39,646 bases of DNA. It comes from Fervidicoccaceae archaeon. GTDB taxonomy: Archaea; Thermoproteota; Thermoprotei_A; Sulfolobales; Fervidicoccaceae. Below the pieces are notes generated by a model. The model was not told the DNA's origin. It saw only the letters and a list, made by a program, of their open reading frames with translations, and did not search any database. Shown here one piece after another: positions 1,211 through 34,903 of this stretch. Within the stretch, counting starts at the first letter, position 1. Each line of letters starts with the position of its first letter. The stretch spans positions 186,001-225,646 of the forward strand of contig JAVYOA010000001.1 in assembly GCA_038734945.1 (NCBI GenBank), in the 5' to 3' direction. Made by a program: the position numbers and the translations under genes.

Positions 1211-2101
1211 TCAGCCACTAATAGCGCTTATCCTCTTCAGTATATCTGTCCTAGTCACTATCCCCTTTGGCTCTCCAAGAGCATTGACGACTATAAGCCT
1301 TCCCACACCATGAAGCTCCATTATTCTCACTGCATCCATTATATCCTCGTCCTCTCTTATTGTGACAACATGCTTCCTCATGTACTCTTCCACTTTAGCC
1401 TTCACGTTTCCCTCGCTGTATGCCTTTGCTATGTCTGTCGTTGTTATTATTCCTACTATCCTATCATTCTCTATTACAGGAGCACCTCTTATCTTCTCTC
1501 TAAACAGAAGACCAGCTGCCTCGCGGAGAAGCATCTGAGGGGTCAGCGTTATCAGATTCTTCGAGGAAATGTCACCAACAATCTCCTTCGGTATGCTCAC
1601 AAGCCTTTTTATCAATATAGCTATTTGCCCCATTGCCCTATCTATGTGCTGCACTTCTCCATCTATCAATATTCTATTGTAGCTCGTAGGCCCTATCCTT
1701 ATAATGTCTCCCTCCTTTATCTCATCGAAGTTCCCGCTAGCCTTTACTATAGCCCTTCCTCCGCCCGGATTGAGTATATCGAGGATCTCCACGGAAAATG
1801 CTGTTATATTGGTTTCCTTGCCGTCCTTCTTTATTTTGAGGGAGCCATACGCAATTATTCCTGTGCTCTTCATGAGCTCTCTGGCCTTCAGGGTTGGCAC
1901 GTATCCTCCCATTGGACCGGTCTTGCTTTCCAACAGTCCCAAGCTCCTAAGGCTGGAAATAACGTTTCTCACAGTCCCCTCATCCTTTCCTATCATCTCA
2001 GCTATCTCTATGCTCTTAATTAGCCTCTTGTGCCTCTCATAAAGCTCAATCAGGGCCATTAGAACCTCTCTCTGTGTTTGAGTTAGCTCATACATGTACA
2101 T
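1211..2101 (-). CDS. wHTH + tandem CBS-domain transcriptional regulator (COG2524-like)
   Basis: N-terminal HTH (EIAEMIGKDEGTVRNVISSLRSLGLLESKTGPMGGY) and two C-terminal CBS repeats (IRGAPVI..VGIITTTDI; GIVTRTDIL). Confidence 0.9.
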   Translation of the reverse strand: MYMYELTQTQREVLMALIELYERHKRLIKSIEIAEMIGKDEGTVRNVISSLRSLGLLESKTGPMGGYVPTLKARELMKSTGIIAYGSLKIKKDGKETNITAFSVEILDILNPGGGRAIVKASGNFDEIKEGDIIRIGPTSYNRILIDGEVQHIDRAMGQIAILIKRLVSIPKEIVGDISSKNLITLTPQMLLREAAGLLFREKIRGAPVIENDRIVGIITTTDIAKAYSEGNVKAKVEEYMRKHVVTIREDEDIMDAVRIMELHGVGRLIVVNALGEPKGIVTRTDILKRISAISG

Positions 2102-2329
2102 TTTTATCTATTCCTCTCCCTTCCACATGACATGTTTTTTCATTTTTTTAGACAAAAAGAACTCATTATAATTTTCAATTATTTTAGAAGTCTTTTCCCT
2201 TTTAAATCTATCGCTTCATCAACTTCTTTTCTTCCATAGAAAAATTTATATAGAAGTGGTTATAATGGATCCTTTGACGCTCAAATTATCCAAGTCTATA
2301 TCAATATAAGGCTTGTGAGGTGCCTCATC

Positions 2330-3985
2330 ATGTCCGTTGAACCAACAGGAATACCTGTTCTAATACTCAAAGAGGGAACACAGAGAACAGCAGGAAGGGA
2401 CGCCCTAAGGAATAACATAATGGCAGTTAAGGCGATAAGCGAGACTCTCAGAACCACATATGGTCCCAAGGGAATGGACAAGATGCTTGTGGATAGCTTG
2501 GGAGACATAACAATAACAAACGATGGAGCAACAATCCTAGACAAAATGGATATACAGCATCCTGGAGCCAAGATGATGGTTCAGATAGCCAAGGGACAGG
2601 ACGAGGAAGTGGGGGACGGAACAAAGACTGCAGTTATTTTAGCAGGCGAACTCCTCAGACAGGCAGAGGATCTCCTCGATAAGGAAATTCATCCAACAGT
2701 AATTGTCTCAGGCTACAAGAGAGCCATGGAGGAGGCAGTAAAAGTAATTGAGCAAATTAGCATACCCATTGACGTTAACGATAAGGAAATTCTGAAGAAG
2801 ATAGCTGTTACCAGTCTATACAGCAAGGCAGTGCAGGGTGCAAGGGATAGACTGGCCGAGATATCAGTTGAAGCCATAACAAAAGTCGCAGAGAAGAGAG
2901 GAGAAAGATACTATGTTGATCTTGACAACATACAAATAGTGAAGAAGCATGGAGGGAGCCTCCTCGATACAATGCTCGTCGAAGGAGTGGTCATTGACAA
3001 GGAGGTTGTGCACCCAGGCATGCCGAAAAGAATAAAGAACGCCAAGATAGCTCTCCTAGATGCAGCGCTGGAAATTGAGAAGCCTGAAATAGATGCGGAG
3101 ATAAGAATCAACGATCCTCTCCAGATGAGGAAGTTCCTCCAGGAAGAGGAAGAAATACTCAAGAAAATGGTCGACAAGATAGCTGAGGTCGGAGCAAACG
3201 TTGTTATATGCCAGAAGGGAATAGATGATGTAGCCCAGCACTTCCTCGCTAAGAAGGGAATCCTTGCTGTGAGGAGGGTCAAGAAGAGTGACATGGAGAA
3301 GCTTGCCAGAGCGACCGGAGGAAGGATTGTCTCCAACATAGAGGATCTCCAATCAGCGGATCTTGGAGAAGCCGCCCTAGTTGAGGAAAGAAAGGTTGGA
3401 GAGGATAAGATGGTATTTATAGAGGGAGCCAAGAACGCCAAGAGTGTTACAGTGCTGATAAGAGGAGGATTCGAGAGACTCATAGCAGAGGGAGAGAGAG
3501 CCCTTAGAGACTCTCTGAGTGCAGTTGCCGATGCAGTGAAATTCGGAAAAATAGTTGGAGGAGGAGGAGCAGTTGAAATTGAGGTTGCAAAGAGACTCAG
3601 AGAGATCGCTCCAAAGATAGGAGGAAAGCAGCAGCTGGCTATCGAAGCATTTGCAAAAGCTCTTGAGACTCTTCCCTCAACTCTGGCCGAGAACGCTGGT
3701 CTTGACGCCCTTGAGATGATAATGAAGCTAAGAGCAGCACACTCGGACTCCAACGGAAGATTTATGGGAATTAATGTCTTCAATGGAAACATCGAGGATA
3801 TGCTGAACCTCGGAATAATAGAGCCCGCAGCCATCAAGCTCAATGCTATAAAGGCCGCTACAGAGGCAGCAACGATGATCCTCAGAATAGACGATTTCAT
3901 AGCAGCCAGCAAAGCAGGAGCTGGGAAGGAAGGGGCCGCTCCTGGCAAGAAGGAAGGAGAGGAAGAGGAGAAGAAGGAAGACTGA
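2330..3985 (+). CDS. thsB: Thermosome (group II chaperonin) subunit, probably beta
   Basis: [27 protein letters not shown] and GGGAVE motifs. ATG 2330 follows GAGGTG SD. The alpha/beta assignment rests on the N-terminal [12 protein letters not shown] resemblance only. Confidence 0.95.
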
Positions 3986-24213: not shown

Positions 24214-24230
24214 GCTAGAAGGGATAAGCC

Positions 24231-24356
24231 ATGAACCTTTGGTTATTTGCTGTGTTGGTCTACATAGCTCTCTTCGTTATATCACTGACAATAGCATTCA
24301 TAATCGATACCATCAGGATTTTCCTGAGAAGGGTCATGAGCAGAGGGAAGAAATAA
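24231..24356 (+). CDS. Unannotated 41-aa single-TM microprotein within the decarboxylase operon
   Basis: MNLWLFAVLVYIALFVISLTIAFIIDTIRIFLRRVMSRGKK*. AAGGGA SD; fills the gap, and its TAA is 1 nt before the next ATG. Confidence 0.7.
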   Translation: MNLWLFAVLVYIALFVISLTIAFIIDTIRIFLRRVMSRGKK

Positions 24357-24357
24357 C

Positions 24358-25542
24358 ATGATTCCAATCGATTTCTCACAGGCAATACCCCTATTATCAC
24401 TTCCAACAGAAGAAATTCTCATAAGGCTGTTCCTCATAGTTGGAGGAATACTGGTCATCTATGGTGGGATCAAGGAAATACTTGAGCCCCTGATAATGAT
24501 ACCTTTTGGTCTTGGAGTTGCTTCGGCAAATGCTGCCTATCTAGCGCTGAAGGTCAATGGAGTAGTGCTCAACAATCCGCATGTTGCCTGGAACCTGACC
24601 GGGTATGAGTGGATACAGTACTTCTGGCTTCAACCCATCTACAATTTCACATTCATGACCGGACTCATCGCAGCTCTAGTCTTCATGGGAATAGGGGTTT
24701 TGACGGATATATCTTTTCTGTTAGCCCGTCCATATGTTAGCATGATACTGGCTGCTTTCGCAGAGCTGGGAACAGTTTTCACATTCCCAATTGCTACCTA
24801 TTTGGGACTTACCCCGAAGCAGGCTGCATCCGTAGCACTAATAGGAGGGGCAGACGGTCCAATAGTGCTGTTCTCCTCAACAGTCCTAGCACCGGAGCTT
24901 TTCATACCTATAACCGTTGTAGGTTATCTGTATCTGAGCTTGCTATATCTGTATCACGAGAAGCTCGCTGAAATAGTGATACCGAAGTCTATGGCATCTA
25001 GGATTATGCCTCCATCTAGCGTTCAGGTCGGAAAAGCTGAAAAGATAGCCTTTGCAATAATAGTGCCAGTGCTGCTTAGCGCAATATTCCCATCAGCTTC
25101 TCCATTACTCCTCGCATTCTTCATTGGAGTATTGATAAGGGAGGTTGGCAATGAGAGATATGTGAAGCTGCTGGATGAAGTCATTCTGAGCGTCTCGACA
25201 TTCTTTCTGGCTCTCGTCCTTGGAGTATCAACAACCAGCAGTGATATAATGGATCCAGTTGTTGGAAAGATATTACTCCTAGGAATTACAGCGCTTTTCC
25301 TATCCAGCCTTGGAGGAATGATAGGAGGAATAATATTGAGCTATATAAGCAAGGGAAAGCTGAACCCCCTACTTGGAGTGGCTGGAGTGTCATGCGTTCC
25401 CACAACCGCAAAGCTAGCACAGAAGCTCGCCTTTAAGCTGAACCCGGAAAACTACATGATAATGGAGCTAATGGGTCCAAATGTTGCCGGAGTTATTACC
25501 ACAGCTATAGTTGCTGCTCTATATCTCTCTGCTCTCATGTGA
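24358..25542 (+). CDS. mmdB: Na+-translocating decarboxylase beta subunit (OadB/MmdB)
   Basis: EPLIMIPFG, FMGIGVLTD, AELG, IGGADGP, NPLLGVAGVSCVPTTAK and GPNVAGVI motifs. Confidence 0.93.
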   Translation: MIPIDFSQAIPLLSLPTEEILIRLFLIVGGILVIYGGIKEILEPLIMIPFGLGVASANAAYLALKVNGVVLNNPHVAWNLTGYEWIQYFWLQPIYNFTFMTGLIAALVFMGIGVLTDISFLLARPYVSMILAAFAELGTVFTFPIATYLGLTPKQAASVALIGGADGPIVLFSSTVLAPELFIPITVVGYLYLSLLYLYHEKLAEIVIPKSMASRIMPPSSVQVGKAEKIAFAIIVPVLLSAIFPSASPLLLAFFIGVLIREVGNERYVKLLDEVILSVSTFFLALVLGVSTTSSDIMDPVVGKILLLGITALFLSSLGGMIGGIILSYISKGKLNPLLGVAGVSCVPTTAKLAQKLAFKLNPENYMIMELMGPNVAGVITTAIVAALYLSALM

Positions 25543-27733: not shown

Positions 27734-28987
27734 TCATGCCTCCTCCTTGCTCTTTTCCATGAGAGGGATCGAAAGGGCTTCTGGAGGTGAAAAGAGCTTT
27801 AGCTCTATCACTTCCCCCTCGTTCAATTTTCTTCCAGGCTCAATGAGGAAGAAGCCGTTTGCTCTGGTTATTGATGTGAGGAACAGAGATCCCCCATACT
27901 CCTTGGATATGGGCTCTGCCACATACTCTCCTCTATATTCAACTCTAGCTGTTCTGAATGTGAGCACCCCTGGCCTCCCCTCAACACCTCTCATGAGCTT
28001 CGCCCTAAGCTTCAGGTAGGGATCTTTGGTTCCATAGAAAGCACTGCTGAGCAATGGTATGACTATGAGGAGAAGGGAGGCCATAGCCGAGCCGATGTGT
28101 GCAGGAACAAGGAAAACAGGCTTTCCCCCAACAATCCCCATACCGCTTACTTTGCCTGGACTCACCTTTATGCCATGGAAAATAATTCTTCCTGCTTTGA
28201 GAAGCGCATCGTGGCAGGGATCATCCTCTCCAACAGATGCTCCACCAACAAGGATAATCGCGTCATAAAAAGAGGAAAGGGAGGAGATGGAGTTAGCTAA
28301 TTTTTCAGCATCATCTGGAAATATACCAATATGATGAGGTTCAAATCCATAGGAAGACAGAAGGAAGAAGGGCAGAAATGAGTAGCTGTCAGGATAGGAG
28401 ATTCCCTGGGCTTTTCTAGAGATCAGGTCGCTTCCTACAGCTGCTATCCCGATTATCGGCCTCCTGAGAACCCTTAATCTCGATCTCCCGAGCTCCATAA
28501 CGAGAACTAGGTCTTGGGCTCTAAGGATCCTTCCAGAAGGAATTGCAATTTCCCCTCCCCTTCCATCGCTTCCCCTTCTAACGATCCCCTCCCCCTTTGG
28601 GATGGGCTTCTTAACAATAAGCTTGTCTCCATCAATTGTTGCCTCCTCGAGCCTCAGAACAGCATCAGCTCCCTGAGGCACAGGGGATCCTCCTCCTATC
28701 AGCACACATTCCCCAGCCGATGTGATTTCTTTAACAATTCTCAAAATTACTGGGGAGGAGGGAGATGCATTGAAAGTATCTTCGCTCCTAAGAGCAAATC
28801 CATCATAGAAGGAAATGTCGCTGCTCGGGAAGTCTCTTGGGAATCTGAGCTCCTCAGCCAGAATTCTGTTCATTGCAAGCTCAACGCTTATTTCCTCTTC
28901 GAAGCGAGTTGAGGAGAAGGATCTCTCTCCAAGGGAGAGAGCCTCGCTCAATTCTATGAGTTTAAGCGGAATTTTTCTTCTCTGCAT
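27734..28987 (-). CDS. moeA: Molybdopterin molybdo-/tungstotransferase
   Basis: RILAE, S..DGFALRSED, GADAV, GGASVGEDD, KVSPGK and RANGF motifs. Confidence 0.88.
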   Translation of the reverse strand: MQRRKIPLKLIELSEALSLGERSFSSTRFEEEISVELAMNRILAEELRFPRDFPSSDISFYDGFALRSEDTFNASPSSPVILRIVKEITSAGECVLIGGGSPVPQGADAVLRLEEATIDGDKLIVKKPIPKGEGIVRRGSDGRGGEIAIPSGRILRAQDLVLVMELGRSRLRVLRRPIIGIAAVGSDLISRKAQGISYPDSYSFLPFFLLSSYGFEPHHIGIFPDDAEKLANSISSLSSFYDAIILVGGASVGEDDPCHDALLKAGRIIFHGIKVSPGKVSGMGIVGGKPVFLVPAHIGSAMASLLLIVIPLLSSAFYGTKDPYLKLRAKLMRGVEGRPGVLTFRTARVEYRGEYVAEPISKEYGGSLFLTSITRANGFFLIEPGRKLNEGEVIELKLFSPPEALSIPLMEKSKEEA

Positions 28988-29145: not shown

Positions 29146-31653
29146 ATGACTAGAAGAGACTTCTTGAAGTCAGCTGCTTTCACTGCACTGGCTCTCTCAA
29201 TTCCTACAGGGGGGCTCAAGCTTCTTGAGAGCATTGCCGAGACTGAGGCAGGAAGTAGTGCTTTAAAGACTAGCACCCCTATTCCTTCCTACGTTCCCAC
29301 CTCCTGCGGAATGTGCGGCGGCAACTGTGGGATCAAGATAGGTGTCCTCGATGGCAAGCCTGTTGGAGTAGTTCCCATAGAAGGTCATCCCCAACCAGGA
29401 ACTTGCGGGAGATGCTCCTCTCTCCCTTGGCTCTACGATAATCCGCTTAGGCTGAAGAGGCCATTGAAGAGAATAGGCAGCAAAGGGGAGGGGAAGCTTG
29501 AGGAGATCTCCTGGGATCAAGCTCTGAGCGAGATAGCGTCCAAGTTGAAGGACATAGTTAGCAAATATGGATACAGGTCAATAGCAATAACCTATCACTC
29601 CTGCTGGGCTAGCTACTTCCCTCTATATGCTTACCTCCTGGGAACACCGAACATAGTGCAGCACGTCAGCATGTGCCACGTTCCAGGAACTGTGGCCAGG
29701 ATGCACATCTTTGGTGTTGGAGGACCAATGGCAGTGGACCCGGATTACGAGAATGCTAGCTATCTTCTTCTAATAGGAAGAAGCGTGAGCACTGGAGTCA
29801 TGGGACAAATAAAGAGGCTCAGAAACAACAGCAAGGTGAGGATTGTGGTTATAGATCCGAGAATGCCTGAGATAGGCTTCGGGGATGTTGAGTGGGTCCC
29901 AATTATCCCAGGAACGGATGCAGCATTTCTTCTATCTATGATCAACGTAATAATAGAGGAGGGTCTCTACGATGCAACCTTCCTTAAGAAGTACAGCAAT
30001 GCTCCATTTCTCATAAAGCCAGATGGCTCTCCTCTCAGAGAAGCTGACGTGAAGGAGGGGGGGAGCTCAACGGTCTACATGGTATATGACAGTGCCTCAG
30101 GCAGCATAGCTCCACACACAAGCGCCTCTTCTCCCGATCTGATGTACAGTGGAACTGTAACATTGAAGGATGGAAGCTCTCTTCAAGTTAAGACAGCATT
30201 CCTTCTGCTGAAGGAAAGAGCCTCACAGTACTCTCCAGAAATGGCTGAGGGCATAACAGGAGTGGAGGCTGAGAAGATAAGGAGGATAGCTAGAGAATTT
30301 GCTATTTATCATGGAGTAGCTGATGATACCTGGTATGCTGCCAAGAACGGAAACGACTATGATGCTGTGAGATCAATTCTCATTCTCAATGCCCTAGTTG
30401 GCAACATAGATGCTGTAGGAGGTCTCATATTCCAGGAGGCAGCAGGAGTTCCAAGCATATTGACTATAACTACAAGTGGCGGGAAGAGATATGCGCAGAC
30501 GGTTTATGGAGCTAAAATGCCGGAGGACATGTTCGCAAATGCTGCTGATAAGAGGGTTGACCAGCTGAAGTATCCCCTCACTCTGGGGACATTTGATGCT
30601 GTAATGGATGCCATAATCAAAGGGGATCCGTATCCTATCAAGGCTCTCTTCGTTATCGGAACTGCTCCAATGCATAGAGACATGGATTTAAACAAGGTGA
30701 TAAAAGCATACGAGAACCTCGAGCTCATGGTATTCATAAATATCCTATATCAGGATGATGTAGACTACGCTGACTATGTTTTGCCGGATACAACATTTAT
30801 GGAGAGAGAAGATGTTTTTTCCACTGCTTGGACGCCACATGCTGTAGTACAGAAGACAAACAAAGTCCTGGATCCCCCCGCAGATGCTGATCCAAGAGAC
30901 GTTCTCTGGGTAATGTTCGAAATAGCTAGGAGAGCCTTTCCTGAAAGAGCCTATGCCCTAGGATGGAGCGACGACTATGCAGACTATTCTAAATACAAAA
31001 CAAACTTTGTTCCAATGGTGCAGAATTCAGTTATTTCCGGAGTTGCCAGCAAGTGGAACATACCTGTTGACGTGCTGAAAGCTCAGCTCCAGAGCAATGG
31101 CTTCTACATTCTGAAGAAGAAGAGCTATTATTCAAGACCTTACAAGACACCCCTAGGCACACCCAGCGGGAAGGTGGAGATATACTCACTTTCCGCACTC
31201 GGCTCAGGCCTGGATCCCCTTCCAAAGCAATCCCCTCCATCGTATACTCTTCCCAGCGCTTCGAATGAGTTCTACCTCGTCAATGCAAAAGGCCCGCTGA
31301 CAAGCCAGCAGGCTACAATACTCGAGCCTGCCAAGTACTTGGATGATAGGACAGTGTGGATGAATCCAGAAGATGCATCGAGACTTGGAATAAGGGATGG
31401 AGACACGATAGAGCTCGAAAGCTTAGACATTCCCGGAGTCAAGGCCCAATGCGAGGTTAGATTAACAACCAGAGTTAGGAAGGGAGTTCTCTATGTATAT
31501 GCCCAGACCGGAGGCAGAATAGGAAAATGGCTTCTGAACATGAAGCACTTCTCAACACAGGGAATAAATCCTGAAGCCTTCGCTGCTGCCAAAGTTACTC
31601 CCATAATCGGAGCAGGGACTGCGAACAGCACAGTCAGGGTGAGAAGAGCATAG
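29146..31653 (+). CDS. psrA: Tat-exported Mo-bisPGD catalytic subunit, polysulfide/thiosulfate/sulfur reductase (Psr/Phs/Sre) clade
   Basis: TRRDFLK Tat motif, CGMCGGNC...C 4Fe-4S, SMCH (putative Cys ligand), PIIPGTDAA, ADYVLPDTTFMER, TPSGKVE and VWMNPEDA. Confidence 0.85.
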   Translation: MTRRDFLKSAAFTALALSIPTGGLKLLESIAETEAGSSALKTSTPIPSYVPTSCGMCGGNCGIKIGVLDGKPVGVVPIEGHPQPGTCGRCSSLPWLYDNPLRLKRPLKRIGSKGEGKLEEISWDQALSEIASKLKDIVSKYGYRSIAITYHSCWASYFPLYAYLLGTPNIVQHVSMCHVPGTVARMHIFGVGGPMAVDPDYENASYLLLIGRSVSTGVMGQIKRLRNNSKVRIVVIDPRMPEIGFGDVEWVPIIPGTDAAFLLSMINVIIEEGLYDATFLKKYSNAPFLIKPDGSPLREADVKEGGSSTVYMVYDSASGSIAPHTSASSPDLMYSGTVTLKDGSSLQVKTAFLLLKERASQYSPEMAEGITGVEAEKIRRIAREFAIYHGVADDTWYAAKNGNDYDAVRSILILNALVGNIDAVGGLIFQEAAGVPSILTITTSGGKRYAQTVYGAKMPEDMFANAADKRVDQLKYPLTLGTFDAVMDAIIKGDPYPIKALFVIGTAPMHRDMDLNKVIKAYENLELMVFINILYQDDVDYADYVLPDTTFMEREDVFSTAWTPHAVVQKTNKVLDPPADADPRDVLWVMFEIARRAFPERAYALGWSDDYADYSKYKTNFVPMVQNSVISGVASKWNIPVDVLKAQLQSNGFYILKKKSYYSRPYKTPLGTPSGKVEIYSLSALGSGLDPLPKQSPPSYTLPSASNEFYLVNAKGPLTSQQATILEPAKYLDDRTVWMNPEDASRLGIRDGDTIELESLDIPGVKAQCEVRLTTRVRKGVLYVYAQTGGRIGKWLLNMKHFSTQGINPEAFAAAKVTPIIGAGTANSTVRVRRA

Positions 31654-31663
31654 GTGATGCAGC

Positions 31664-32236
31664 ATGGTCAGATATGGTTTCCTATACGATGAGAGCAGAT
31701 GCATATCGTGCTTATCCTGTGTCATAGCATGCTCGTCGAACAACTATGGAGAATTCATGGAGGATCAGAATCCGAATCCTTTCTGGAGGACGTTAGCTAC
31801 AAACATAAGAGTTGTTATCAAGGAGGTTGGAAGGGCAGAGATCAACCTTCTCTCTTGCCAACACTGCGAGAGACCCCCTTGCGTTGAGGTTTGCCCAACA
31901 GGAGCATCCCACATTGACAGAAGCAATGGGCTCGTCGAAATAGATTATGAGAAATGCATAGGATGCAAGGCCTGCGTAACTGCCTGTCCCTACAACGCCA
32001 GATGGCTTGATAAGGTCAAGATGCTTCCCATGAAGTGCATGGGAGAAGCATGCAAGGCTAGAGTGAGCAGGGGGGAGCTTCCGTTCTGTGTGGCCGTCTG
32101 CCCAGCAAATGCTAGAGCCTTCGGAGACCTGGATAATCCTAACAGCGACATAAGCAAGAGAATAGCAACTGCCAAGACAGTTAGGCTCAAGGAATCACTT
32201 GGAACAGAACCAAAGTTCTTCGTTGTTAGGGGGTGA
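31664..32236 (+). CDS. psrB: Four-cluster ferredoxin subunit (PsrB/NrfC-like)
   Basis: CISCLSCVIAC, CQHCERPPCVEVCP, CIGCKACVTACPY and KC..C....PFCVAVCP. Confidence 0.92.
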   Translation: MVRYGFLYDESRCISCLSCVIACSSNNYGEFMEDQNPNPFWRTLATNIRVVIKEVGRAEINLLSCQHCERPPCVEVCPTGASHIDRSNGLVEIDYEKCIGCKACVTACPYNARWLDKVKMLPMKCMGEACKARVSRGELPFCVAVCPANARAFGDLDNPNSDISKRIATAKTVRLKESLGTEPKFFVVRG

Positions 32237-32816
32237 GGAAAGATGAGGAGAATGTATGCTCTGCTAACTAGCCTGGCTCTTTTAATAGTAGGGGTTGTTC
32301 TCGGCTTCATTGGTTTCAGACTCAAGGAGGTTGGAGAAATAGCCTGGGGATTTCTTGTTCCAGGTTACATGTTCTTCGCAATGACAGCAGCTGGTGCAGC
32401 TCTCGTTACTCTTGCCCCCTCCTTATTTGGATTCAGCGGGAAGGAAGGAGAGCTTAGATCCCTCAGAAAGCTGGCCCTCTGGTTCGCTGCAGGCACGCTA
32501 ATACCCTCATGGTTCCTGATACTCCTAGATCTCTCCAGACCTCCAGAGTTCGTTGAGATATTCCTTAGCTTCAATCCCAGCTCTAGAATAGCATGGATGG
32601 GAGTGTTGTATCTGACAACGTTCATTGTCCTGGTTGTAGAGCTTATATATGCCATCGTAAAGGAGGAAAGAGGTGAGGGGGTCCAGGGTAAAGCTCTAGG
32701 TGGGATCATCCTCACAATAGTAGGGACAATAGTTGAGCTCTTGCTCATCTCGAATCTCTCACAAGTATTCGGCGTCGTTCAAACATTTCCTGCCTGGCAC
32801 GGATCCTATCTTGTGG

Positions 32817-32990
32817 GGTTCAGCTCTTATATAAGTTTATATTGGTCGGTTTCATCGCCTCATCTTTGTTCCCCTGCATCCCACTCGGGTTTTCATCGGG
32901 CTTAGGAGCGTTCAGGGGTACCCTTAAACCCCCACATCTTGAGTACCTGTGGAACAAGTTGATGCACGCTACGACGTCTCTGTCGCCTGT
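32817..32990 (-). ncRNA. Predicted omegaRNA/sotRNA overlapping the tnpB 3' end
   Basis: GC-rich hairpin region (CCCGATGAAAACCCGAGTGGG, CCCCTG...CAGGGG) in the tail of tnpB. Position follows the established TnpB omegaRNA architecture; bounds are approximate. Confidence 0.55.
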
Positions 32991-34043
32991 GAAACCGCAT
33001 TTAGAGCACTTCAATACTCTATTACCATTATCTTCTAGCTTGCATCTACACCTGGGACATGTGGATGATGTTTTCTTTGGATTAACACATCCAACCTCTA
33101 AACTTCTCTCAAGTGCTTCATATCCTATGGTAAACTGTATTTTCCTGTAGAACCACAGCGATAGTTTCTTGTTGAATGTTTTGTTCTTCTTTTCGTTATC
33201 CTTAAGTTTGTTTAGGTTTTCGAGAACTATGGTTGAGTTATGCTCATCAGCTAGCTCAGCAATTCTATCGCCTATCTTATGTGTGAAATCCCATTCTATA
33301 TTCCTAATCATTTCACCATGTCTCTCGATAGCTCTTCTAACACCTCTAATGAATCTCCACGACCTTAGATATTTCTTTTGAATCTTCTCGATCCATATCT
33401 TATGTGTCAGTATTCTTCTGAGTGGTGTTCTGAATCGCTTGAGCTTGATTATTCTTCCGTTGGATGTGAAAATAGCTAGCGTAATGTTGTCGAAATTCAA
33501 GTCAACAGTCATAATGGTTCTGGGTTTTCTTGGCTTAACGGTTTTCTTGAAGTAAACCGCTACGTAGACCTCGTCTTCATTCACCTTTACAGCAATCTCA
33601 TAGTTGCTCCATTCTCTAAACTTTTCCACTCTCTCGCTAGATGTTAGCAGTTTTAGCTTAACTTCCCTGTTTTCATGAATCTTTAGAATCAGTATTCTGT
33701 TTTCGAGATCAAGTCTGTAGTCGTATTTGTCTACTCTAGCCGTTAACCTCCTTAGAACCGGCTTCTTTCCACCATTCTTTTTACTAGCTTTAGCAATGGC
33801 TTTTGCATAGACGTAGATCTGCTTTACGTGGTGTGCTCTGAAACCGCATCTTCTAAGCTCGCCGTAGAACATTCTATGCAGTTTTGCTATTGAAGGTATT
33901 GCTCTCAGGTTCCAGAGTTTGTTCACTACTAGCTGAACAACATCGTGGTAGAGCCTCAGGAACTCGACCAGAGCTTCATAGCCATTACTACCCTCGGGGA
34001 GAGCCCTTATCATAAGTGTTTCAATAAGTTCTCCTTCCCTCAT
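32820..34043 (-). CDS. tnpB: RNA-guided endonuclease TnpB
   Basis: RuvC-I TVDLN, RuvC-II VLENL, Zn finger CPRC...CSKC and RuvC-III DRDVVACINL. ATG 34043 follows AGGAG. Confidence 0.93.
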   Translation of the reverse strand: MREGELIETLMIRALPEGSNGYEALVEFLRLYHDVVQLVVNKLWNLRAIPSIAKLHRMFYGELRRCGFRAHHVKQIYVYAKAIAKASKKNGGKKPVLRRLTARVDKYDYRLDLENRILILKIHENREVKLKLLTSSERVEKFREWSNYEIAVKVNEDEVYVAVYFKKTVKPRKPRTIMTVDLNFDNITLAIFTSNGRIIKLKRFRTPLRRILTHKIWIEKIQKKYLRSWRFIRGVRRAIERHGEMIRNIEWDFTHKIGDRIAELADEHNSTIVLENLNKLKDNEKKNKTFNKKLSLWFYRKIQFTIGYEALERSLEVGCVNPKKTSSTCPRCRCKLEDNGNRVLKCSKCGFTGDRDVVACINLFHRYSRCGGLRVPLNAPKPDENPSGMQGNKDEAMKPTNINLYKS

Positions 34044-34120
34044 TGAGTAGCTTCTCCTGTGTTTAGCTGTGAGAGACATATTTATAATTTTTTCTATCAA
34101 ATTAGCTTATAGGAGATAGA

Positions 34121-34266
34121 TTGGCTAACAAGCTCTATTTTGTGAAGTGCAATGTTATAAAGTATAGGTATGAGCACCAGTACTATACCCACTAGGAAAA
34201 GACAAGGAGAAGATAAGACAGCTCCACGGAAAGAAAGTCTACGCGTTAATCATAACAGAGGAGTAA
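34121..34266 (+). pseudogene. Frameshifted ~48-aa basic micro-ORF divergent from tnpB inside the element
   Basis: AGGAG SD + TTG 34121 gives MANKLYFVKCNVIKYRYEHQYY (stop 34193-95). The -1 frame continues LYPLGKDKEKIRQLHGKKVYALIITEE* (TAA 34264-66). Confidence 0.55.
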
Positions 34267-34903
34267 TATCAAGAGATATAAACCAATATGAAACCCAAAA
34301 CAGTTGCACGAGGCAATATTCATCGCAGCATCACTTCTTCTTGGCTCAGCAGGAATGAGCCTATTCGGTGCGATGGCTATGAGAGGAAGGGAGAAGGAAA
34401 GGAGCTTCTTAGCATCCTACTATGGAAAGATGCTGATAGCATCGTCGATGGCCCTCGTTCTTCTCCTATTCTGGGATTTCCTTTCAGCGTACTATACACC
34501 AGAAGCATGGGCATCGCTCAGTAGAATGGTAAACGGCTCGTATGCATTATCTTTCTGGTTTGCAGTAGTGCTGGGCTTAGTTGCTGCCCCTCTGCTGGCA
34601 GGAATCGCTTCGAAAAGGAGATCAATTTCTGCTCTAGCCTTTTCCTCCGCTCTTTCGCTCATATTCGGCATCATGCTACTGTATTTGATAATAGTTGTTC
34701 CTCAGACTGTTTACTTCGATGTTATTCCAGAAGTCACAATAATAAATAGCTACTCAGTAGGAACAGGAGAGGCCCTCATAGGACTGGGAGGAGCTCTTAT
34801 TTGGGCTGCCCTCATAGCGCTGGGCTACTATCTTCTCCCGCTGATGCCAGAGGAAAGAGCAAGGAAGCTATTCATATTCAAGTGATTTTTTTAAATCAGA
34901 ATC

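Follow-up and report, generated by a model that had tools for sequence, protein, structure and literature searches.

A tnpA-less, IS607-like tnpB element inserted precisely into the only psrC gene of a Fervidicoccaceae archaeon, with the empty site retained in hot-spring metagenomes

What does a transposon-derived gene in the middle of a membrane anchor gene, both halves of which are still intact, tell about the genome that carries it: has the gene simply been hit by a mobile element, or has it been placed under the control of a switch? The question is raised by a stretch of 39,646 nucleotides from a Fervidicoccaceae archaeon (assembly GCA_038734945.1, contig JAVYOA010000001.1, positions 186,001 to 225,646; hereafter the window), the genome of which comprises 1.34 Mb in 9 contigs with an estimated completeness of 99.95%. 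Here, a tnpB-only element of 1497 bp (about 32816-34312, tnpB on the minus strand) interrupts psrC, the gene for the NrfD/PsrC-type anchor of a Psr/Phs-like reductase. A preliminary description, drawn up from the sequence alone, saw in this arrangement a potentially reversible, RNA-guarded off-switch for sulfur respiration. We consider it likely that the locus instead represents a recent, polymorphic, and otherwise ordinary insertion of a tnpA-less IS607 element, consisting of tnpB and a right end that would encode the guide RNA, into the sole psrC of the genome.

The insertion is precise to the base. In the open reading frame (ORF) list, the frame of the N-terminal psrC half reads on into the element up to a stop at 32905, and the C-terminal half is back in frame with it after removal of 1497 nt; both halves match the Pfam NrfD profile (Table 1). 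A single continuous NrfD-family protein is therefore not encoded after the catalytic and ferredoxin subunits, the gene being split by the element. Deletion of 32816-34312 yields ...TAT CTT GTG GCA ATA TTC..., that is YLVAIF, within the protein WHGSYLVAIFIA; the uninterrupted orthologues of two genomes of the same genus read across the site without a gap as WHG[SA]Y[LM]V[AP]IFI (WHGAYLVPIFIV in G001 and WHGSYMVAIFIS in G002), and psrC is continuous in these genomes as well as in metagenome contigs. A GG dinucleotide is present at both 32815-16 and 34312-13 and the bases adjoining it differ, so that the ambiguity of the junction is exactly 2 nt; in the empty sites of G001, G002, and four metagenome runs this core dinucleotide is single, and there is no longer duplication. 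What the preliminary description had read from the window, namely two intact psrC halves in the same frame, a reading frame that is rebuilt by the deletion, and a GG common to both junctions, is borne out by the Pfam matches, the orthologues, and the contigs. Its alternative placement of the ends at 32810-34312 had to be dropped, as it would delete two codons that are kept in all orthologues and is also contradicted by the aligned ends of relatives and by the empty-site contigs.

The precise empty site also exists in natural communities. When public runs were searched with 32300-34800, 13 runs from five studies were found to contain part of this stretch; one of them has 0.90 of the sampled words, and in three the fraction is 0.41, roughly what the two flanks make up. 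The four best runs (X1-X4, from two studies) had their contigs aligned to the stretch, and in all four a contig joins 32814 to 34312, skipping 1497 bases and leaving two ambiguous letters, with 0 mismatches over 32300-32814 and 34312-34800. The joint is bridged by at least 255 letters in X2, X3, and X4. In X1, a 21-kb contig (word depth 197) ends 30 letters beyond the joint, a 1387-base contig (depth 14) spans 32955, inside the element, to 34341, and a 1000-base contig (depth 165) begins at 34312, these depths being rough and not a share of cells; the contig ends fit a two-path bubble, and both alleles seem to be present in this sample, with the occupied allele in the minority. These empty sites from hot-spring metagenomes, together with 0 differences in 1004 flank bases between the window and the empty-site contigs, uphold the earlier suggestion that the insertion is precise and recent. 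The intact psrC allele is ancestral, and the insertion is still polymorphic in natural populations.

Copies or fragments of the element occur in 10 of 40 relatives of the same order (G001 and G002 match in psrC only), among them internally deleted and miniature forms in which both ends are retained (L025 in G033:C6, L026 in G022:C5, L034 in G033:C2, and L029 in G031:C4, also L019 and L036). A scan of one genome per species added 28 further loci (best-segment identity 37-80%; 48-74% protein identity for the longer matches), the hosts being hot-spring metagenome-assembled genomes (MAGs) named Ignisphaera, Desulfurococcaceae, Desulfurococcus, Sulfolobales, Nezhaarchaeota, Methanomethylicota, and Thermoproteota. 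Two loci, L054 (Nezhaarchaeota MAG) and L055 (Desulfurococcaceae MAG), have the same flanks and ends in contigs of very different lineages, which points to a binning problem or very recent transfer. Aligned with their flanks in tnpB orientation and counted over distinct flanks (32 left, 45 right), the copies define the termini and a G-CC target motif, where previously the ends had been placed from the window alone. The left junction has the consensus N-G-CC, continuing inside the element with T(C/A)..GCAACTGTTT.GG.TTCATA..GTTTATA (in short, G-CC and then T...CTGTTT...); CC is found at 31 of 32 distinct left flanks, the exception being a truncated copy, with G as the preceding base in 30 of 31. 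The right junction reads ...GAGCTGAACC-CC followed by any base (N), with CC in 41 of 45 distinct flanks (equally, ...GAACC-CC in 41/45) and T as the next base in 27 of 45. Outside these junction points the flanks are unrelated among copies. The window matches the consensus exactly (...ATTG-CC-TCGTG...TGAACC-CC-ACAAG...), with the conserved G-CC directly 5' of the left end, and the 2-nt ambiguity as such fits both an IS607 and an IS200/IS605-type insertion.

Concerning the choice between these two families, the ORF list contains no tnpA within the element, hence no serine-recombinase TnpA of the IS607 type, and tblastn with serine and Y1 TnpA gave 0 matches in 67 loci (232 kb) around relatives of the element TnpB, with a positive control that worked; the element can thus only be a non-autonomous derivative. 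Full IS607 copies were found in relatives by a search with the serine-tnpA element of the own genome. In one of them (L084, genome G021), a left end of GCC followed by TCGTGTAGCTGTTTGGGTTTCATATAAGTTTATAA lies ~70 nt upstream of an intact 200-aa MerR-type helix-turn-helix (HTH)/serine recombinase, after which comes tnpB, and the arrangement is the same in L085 (G031), L094 (G021), and L083 (G032), with a serine tnpA that is intact or recognizable. The window element shares with these four the left end (GCC, then TCGTG.A.CTGTTTGGGTTTCATA..GTTTATAA), a right end in ...AACCCC (where visible, i.e., in L085, L083, L082, and L080), and the CC polarity, but they differ from it in possessing a serine tnpA, and the L084 TnpB is only 25% identical to that of the element (alignment A3, which gives 23% for L010 of the own genome). 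By eye, the terminal ~40 nt of the window left end are ~85% identical to the L084 left end. An identical core dinucleotide at both junctions that is single in the empty site is likewise as expected for IS607, and subterminal hairpins, the imperfect palindromes of IS200/IS605 elements, were not seen beyond chance when the terminal 82 nt at each end were folded as DNA on both strands (z -0.29, -1.04, -0.27, and +0.19 versus shuffles). From the left-end homology to serine-tnpA elements, the common CC core, and the lack of hairpins, we read the element as a tnpA-less derivative of the IS607 family that would depend on a serine TnpA in trans, in agreement with the IS607-type attribution and the absence of tnpA put forward in the preliminary description. 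The latter had also remarked that the core reads CC in tnpB orientation, opposite to the usual polarity; this is real with respect to the GG of the studied clostridial IS607 element, as given in the accessible parts of the report on it (bioRxiv 10.1101/2023.11.20.567912), but since the tnpA-bearing archaeal elements share it, CC is, judged from these sequences, a trait of the lineage and no anomaly.

Two further loci touch on this family. An IS607-like locus of the own genome outside the window (L010, G000:C2 about 1259-3122) has ends of the same type (GGATTGCC followed by TTTTTCAG... and ...TTCAGAACCC followed by TC), an intact tnpB (403 aa), and a serine tnpA with a frameshift that separates the MerR-HTH from the catalytic domain. 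In G021:C5 (about 24219-24450; L035/L084), a right-end fragment belonging to the tnpB-only family is found in opposite orientation ~110 nt from the full IS607 element's left end.

Table 1. Features of the psrC locus; positions and strands refer to the window.
Feature	Positions	Strand	Remarks
Catalytic subunit, Psr/Phs-like molybdopterin oxidoreductase	29146..31653	+	intact, 835 aa, twin-arginine-type N-terminus
Four-cluster ferredoxin subunit, PsrB/NrfC-like	31664..32236	+	intact, 190 aa; Pfam Fer4_11 and related domains
NrfD/PsrC membrane anchor, N-terminal half	32243..32815	+	Pfam NrfD profile positions 7-173, E 9e-16
Predicted 16-20-nt omegaRNA guide, flank at right end	32795..32814	-	5'-ACAAGATAGGATCCGT...; position from the TnpB model in the accessible parts of 10.1101/2023.11.20.567912
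Core dinucleotide, right-end junction	32815..32816	.	GG on + strand, CC in tnpB orientation
Conserved right-end block, ~130 nt	32817..32945	-	ACTCAAGATGTGG...GAGCTGAACC; wholly inside the 3' end of the tnpB frame
tnpB, RNA-guided endonuclease gene	32820..34100	-	426 aa from TTG; family, PDB, and fold matches
Left end	34101..34311	-	terminal ~45 nt (TCGTGCAACTGTTTTGGGTTTCATATTGGTTTATA) conserved, remainder is tnpB upstream region, no tnpA; aligned with about 30 copies
Core dinucleotide and conserved flanking base, left-end junction	34312..34314	.	core 34312-34313; G-CC in tnpB orientation; candidate target/target-adjacent motif
NrfD/PsrC, C-terminal half	34313..34885	+	Pfam NrfD profile positions 178-309

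The closest parallel among studied systems is the IS607 IStron of C. botulinum, for which the accessible parts of the report describe a strict GG core, 5'-TGGG-3' as target and target-adjacent motif (TAM), and an omegaRNA scaffold ending in UCGG (10.1101/2023.11.20.567912). In either element, one core dinucleotide recurs at the two junctions and is single in the empty site, the donor joint is scarless, the target motif includes the core, and tnpB is followed by a right end for a scaffold and a flank-derived guide (predicted here); in both, TAM and scaffold end are one base apart (TGGG/UCGG there, GCC/CCC here). Unlike the clostridial element as described there, the one in the window has neither tnpA nor a group I intron, its core is CC instead of GG, its candidate motif is (N)GCC, its right-end block is fully contained in the tnpB frame, the stop codon of which lies 4 nt before the end, and its host is an archaeon. 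SisTnpB1 of Sulfolobus islandicus, according to the available portion of its report (bioRxiv 10.1101/2023.03.06.531077), is comparable in being a thermophilic archaeal TnpB, in the occurrence of tnpB-only copies beside tnpA-bearing ones, and in a TAM predicted from left-end flanks; it belongs, however, to IS200/IS605 with an AT-rich TTTAA TAM, whereas the window element has IS607-type ends and a GC-rich motif.

The TnpB protein is predicted to be intact at the level of motifs and fold. Its true start is probably the ATG at 34043 (407 aa), because relatives align from residue 17 and two have a stop upstream. It matches NF040570 guided_TnpB with 99 bits (cut-off 100) and also Pfam Cas12f1-like_TNB. 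In an alignment of 13 proteins, D200 (in TVDLNFDN), E294 (in VLENL), and D373/R374/D375 (DRD), as well as C348, C351, C365, and C368, are invariant or nearly so (426-aa numbering); in the numbering of the 410-aa piece, D184, E278, C332, C335, C349, C352, and R358 are invariant and D357 is nearly invariant. The E and DRD motifs and the zinc finger also align with solved TnpB and Cas12f chains in a sequence search of the PDB. The three RuvC acidic residues and the zinc finger that had been noted from the sequence are accordingly present, the first aspartate by conservation within the family. The AlphaFold2 model (mean predicted local distance difference test score, pLDDT, 83.8; predicted template modeling score, pTM, 0.73) comprises a full WED/REC/RuvC/TNB fold, and Foldseek aligns it over its whole length with AsCas12f (8dzj_A, E 1e-16, TM 0.57 over 425 columns) and ISDra2 TnpB (8h1j_A, E 2e-13). 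Against these chains and a further one (PDB 8h1j, 8exa, and 8dzj; Foldseek E 1e-16 to 1e-10), the sequence identity of the window TnpB is only 15-18%. ISDra2 belongs to IS200/IS605 and depends on a Y1 TnpA for its movement. The last 34 TnpB residues, encoded by the conserved right-end block, have a pLDDT below 50, and this tail is predicted to be disordered.

The right-end block itself is probably omegaRNA scaffold and recombination end in one. It is kept in full-length, internally deleted, and miniature copies, the tnpB stop codon being 4 nt from the element end. In L053 and L058, the TnpB frame stops ~11 residues early owing to a one-base gap in the block, and the nucleotides are still conserved, so that conservation acts at the nucleic-acid level. 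As RNAalifold gave a weak consensus on right ends (-4.6 kcal/mol), five helices were drawn by eye and their pairing was counted in 32 distinct copies: 89.7% of the helix cells are paired versus 78.2% in shuffles (0 of 500 as high) and 35-54% when partners are slid by one to three columns, and the covariation score is 0.289 versus 0.115, in a count that favors these helices, as they were drawn from the same sequences and in a coding region. Compensatory types occur in helix 1 (GGGGT/ACCCC, GGGTG/CACCC, GGGCC/GGCCC, and GGGAG/CTCCC) and helix 3 (CC/GG versus GG/CC). Rfam, searched with both strands of 32600-34500 at E up to 1, gave no match, and no RNA run is among the public runs found to contain the stretch. 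In G031, a subtype lacks the last hairpin of the block (...GAGGCAATGAC.ACAGAGAGCTGAACCCC). Contigs in X2 and X3 that are 90-95% alike to the block (window 32804-32971) reach summed word depths of up to 37,391; copies of the block are thus very abundant in some hot-spring communities, presumably in other organisms.

Beyond the block, the right-end flank would serve as guide. The guide quoted in the preliminary description, ACAAGATAGGATCCGTGCC, is the reverse complement of 32796-32814, and its predicted match to the restored psrC allele holds, next to the conserved GCC motif. The 16-nt guide is unique in the genome, where matches with three mismatches number 9 versus 14 for a reversed control and are thus at chance level. 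Flanks of two copies in relatives (L031 and L032) that resemble the psrC guide were taken as chance, as they do not encode an NrfD-like protein.

Taken together, the following course of events can be proposed, several steps of it by analogy with studied IS607 and IS605 systems (accessible parts of 10.1101/2023.11.20.567912). A serine TnpA from a full IS607 element of the kind found in related archaea would have been supplied in trans, and a double-stranded circle would have been inserted at the CC of a G-CC target by serine-recombinase exchange, so that both junctions carry an identical CC (GG on the + strand) and the target is otherwise unaltered. Transcription of the right end with its flank would then give a scaffold ending in ...GAACCCC, followed by ACAAGAUAGGAUCCGU..., and TnpB with this RNA, carrying 16-20 nt of psrC flank, may cut the emptied site, which reads TTGCC followed by ACAAGATAGG, with GCC next to the target. 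The occupied site would be spared, as it reads CCCC before the same flank and thereby departs from the emptied site at the position occupied by G in 30 of 31 left flanks.

A number of observations weigh against this account. The preliminary description supposed that a trans-acting TnpA could restore PsrC, and a search of the genome does return two Y1 tnpA genes above the Pfam cut-off and one serine-recombinase gene; however, the serine copy is frameshifted, with its MerR-type HTH and catalytic domain in different frames (checked against an intact 200-aa homologue, of which residues 38-197 align in one frame only), so that the genome has no intact serine tnpA, its sole copy being broken. Nor does it contain a second DNA copy of the element, and the nearest database copies, at 73-80% identity in DNA, provide no donor. 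The bridge across the joint in X1 measures 30 letters and lies at a contig end, below the 31-letter rule, the depths are rough as noted, and the element contig departs from the window sequence at 33010, 33992, and 34154 with identical psrC flanks; hence either the occupied allele is not entirely new or more than one form of it exists. As a single sequence, the right-end block folds no better as RNA than shuffles (z -0.36), and the helix count carries the bias mentioned above. For the first RuvC aspartate there is family invariance only, since the PDB alignments begin after it, and a PDB search with residues 180-300 alone gave chance matches only.

Could the element nonetheless have been moved by a Y1 transposase? 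It would then be a tnpB-only element of IS200/IS605 (IS1341-type), transferred as single-stranded DNA and inserted 3' of (T)GCC, with the shared CC as a chance agreement between the target on the left and the cleavage motif on the right. The two Y1 tnpA genes of the genome would be in line with this, as would the 2-nt ambiguity, which also permits insertion directly 3' of GCC, and the NCBIfam models, where the element TnpB scores slightly higher on IS200 TnpB than on IS607 TnpB, both far below the cut-offs. Yet the left end is homologous to the left ends of serine-tnpA IS607 elements, neither end shows hairpins beyond chance, and among the three other TnpB genes of the genome (23-28% identical to the element TnpB, besides two short fragments) those adjoining Y1 genes reach 23-24%, whereas the nearest paralogue, with 28% identity and a better E-value (8e-10), directly follows the serine tnpA, all of which makes an IS200/IS605 origin very unlikely. 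Misplacement of a repeat into psrC during assembly of a population might explain why the empty path in X1 is so much deeper than the element path (197 and 165 versus 14), the more so as samples of this kind contain the right-end block in extreme abundance. But another, independent public contig begins within the element at 32955 and extends to 34341 in psrC, and both junctions carry the family G-CC...CC signature at an in-frame, base-precise target, features that a chimeric join would not give, and such an artefact is hardly credible.

The off-switch of the preliminary description would require that scarless excision by a serine TnpA in trans alternates with renewed cutting of the restored psrC by TnpB and omegaRNA, so that the two alleles represent on/off cycling. 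Compatible with it are the coexistence of both alleles with identical flanks, side by side in one run, the intact TnpB motifs, and a restored site that would have both GCC and the guide match; moreover, for the clostridial element that has been studied, the accessible parts of the report describe scarless IS607 excision and cutting of the donor joint by TnpB (10.1101/2023.11.20.567912). However, the genome has a single serine tnpA, which is frameshifted, neither a circle junction nor an excision intermediate is present among the contigs placed on the chromosomal site, and the empty allele is ancestral in the sister species, so that coexistence needs no excision and is equally explained by a new insertion in part of the population. 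Reversibility, conceivable in principle, thus finds no direct support, and we regard the switch as improbable. The mention of sulfur respiration is also over-specific and its link to the locus uncertain: the catalytic subunit matches PhsA below the cut-off, and in the part of the Desulfurococcus mobilis genome report that was available, S0 reduction is assigned to a cytoplasmic NADPH-dependent enzyme (PMC4711178). We therefore retain the ordinary insertion of a tnpA-less IS607 element as the preferred interpretation.

As to the host, the interrupted gene belongs to a complex iron-sulfur molybdoenzyme operon on the + strand (29146-34885). The product of the catalytic subunit gene has the Pfam domains Molybdopterin, Molydop_binding, and Fe4S4, with PhsA as top NCBIfam match (318.8 bits versus a cut-off of 694), and the ferredoxin subunit matches NrfC and DsrO, both below the NCBIfam cut-offs. 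The catalytic subunit is the sole close copy in the genome, the operon the sole close Psr/Phs-like one, and the split psrC the only NrfD-family gene. The insertion truncates the membrane anchor and probably disables it; the similarity of the catalytic subunit to PhsA/Psr-type enzymes does not reach the curated cut-off. Immediately upstream of the operon, a 417-aa frame on the minus strand (27734-28987) is, by eye, a putative MoeA-type molybdopterin biosynthesis protein.

While tnpB-only elements, archaeal TnpBs, and the mechanics of IS607 are already known, also from the accessible parts of the two reports cited above (10.1101/2023.11.20.567912; 10.1101/2023.03.06.531077), the exact ends and the G-CC motif of this element family, its link to serine-tnpA elements with CC polarity, and a natural pair of occupied and empty alleles are new. 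They provide base-precise ends, a G-CC target motif, and a candidate TAM for a tnpB-only element that is widespread in hot-spring archaea, and show that the IS607 core of this archaeal lineage is CC in tnpB orientation as compared to GG in the studied clostridial element (accessible parts of 10.1101/2023.11.20.567912). In addition, an occupied site that coexists with its exact empty donor joint is material for testing TnpB-driven retention or homing in archaea at high temperature. That the occupied psrC allele acts as a homing allele of natural origin within a population of hyperthermophilic archaea appears rather unlikely; if true, TnpB would cut the co-occurring empty allele (TAM GCC, one base from its own CCC end), and repair from the occupied copy, in a second chromosome of the cell or after DNA exchange between cells, would let the element persist or spread without a transposase of its own while the respiratory membrane anchor is switched off, and a serine TnpA supplied by the community could also flip the site back. 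For the organism, the membrane anchor of its only Psr/Phs-like reductase has probably been lost in part of the population, which is otherwise ordinary insertion-sequence biology.

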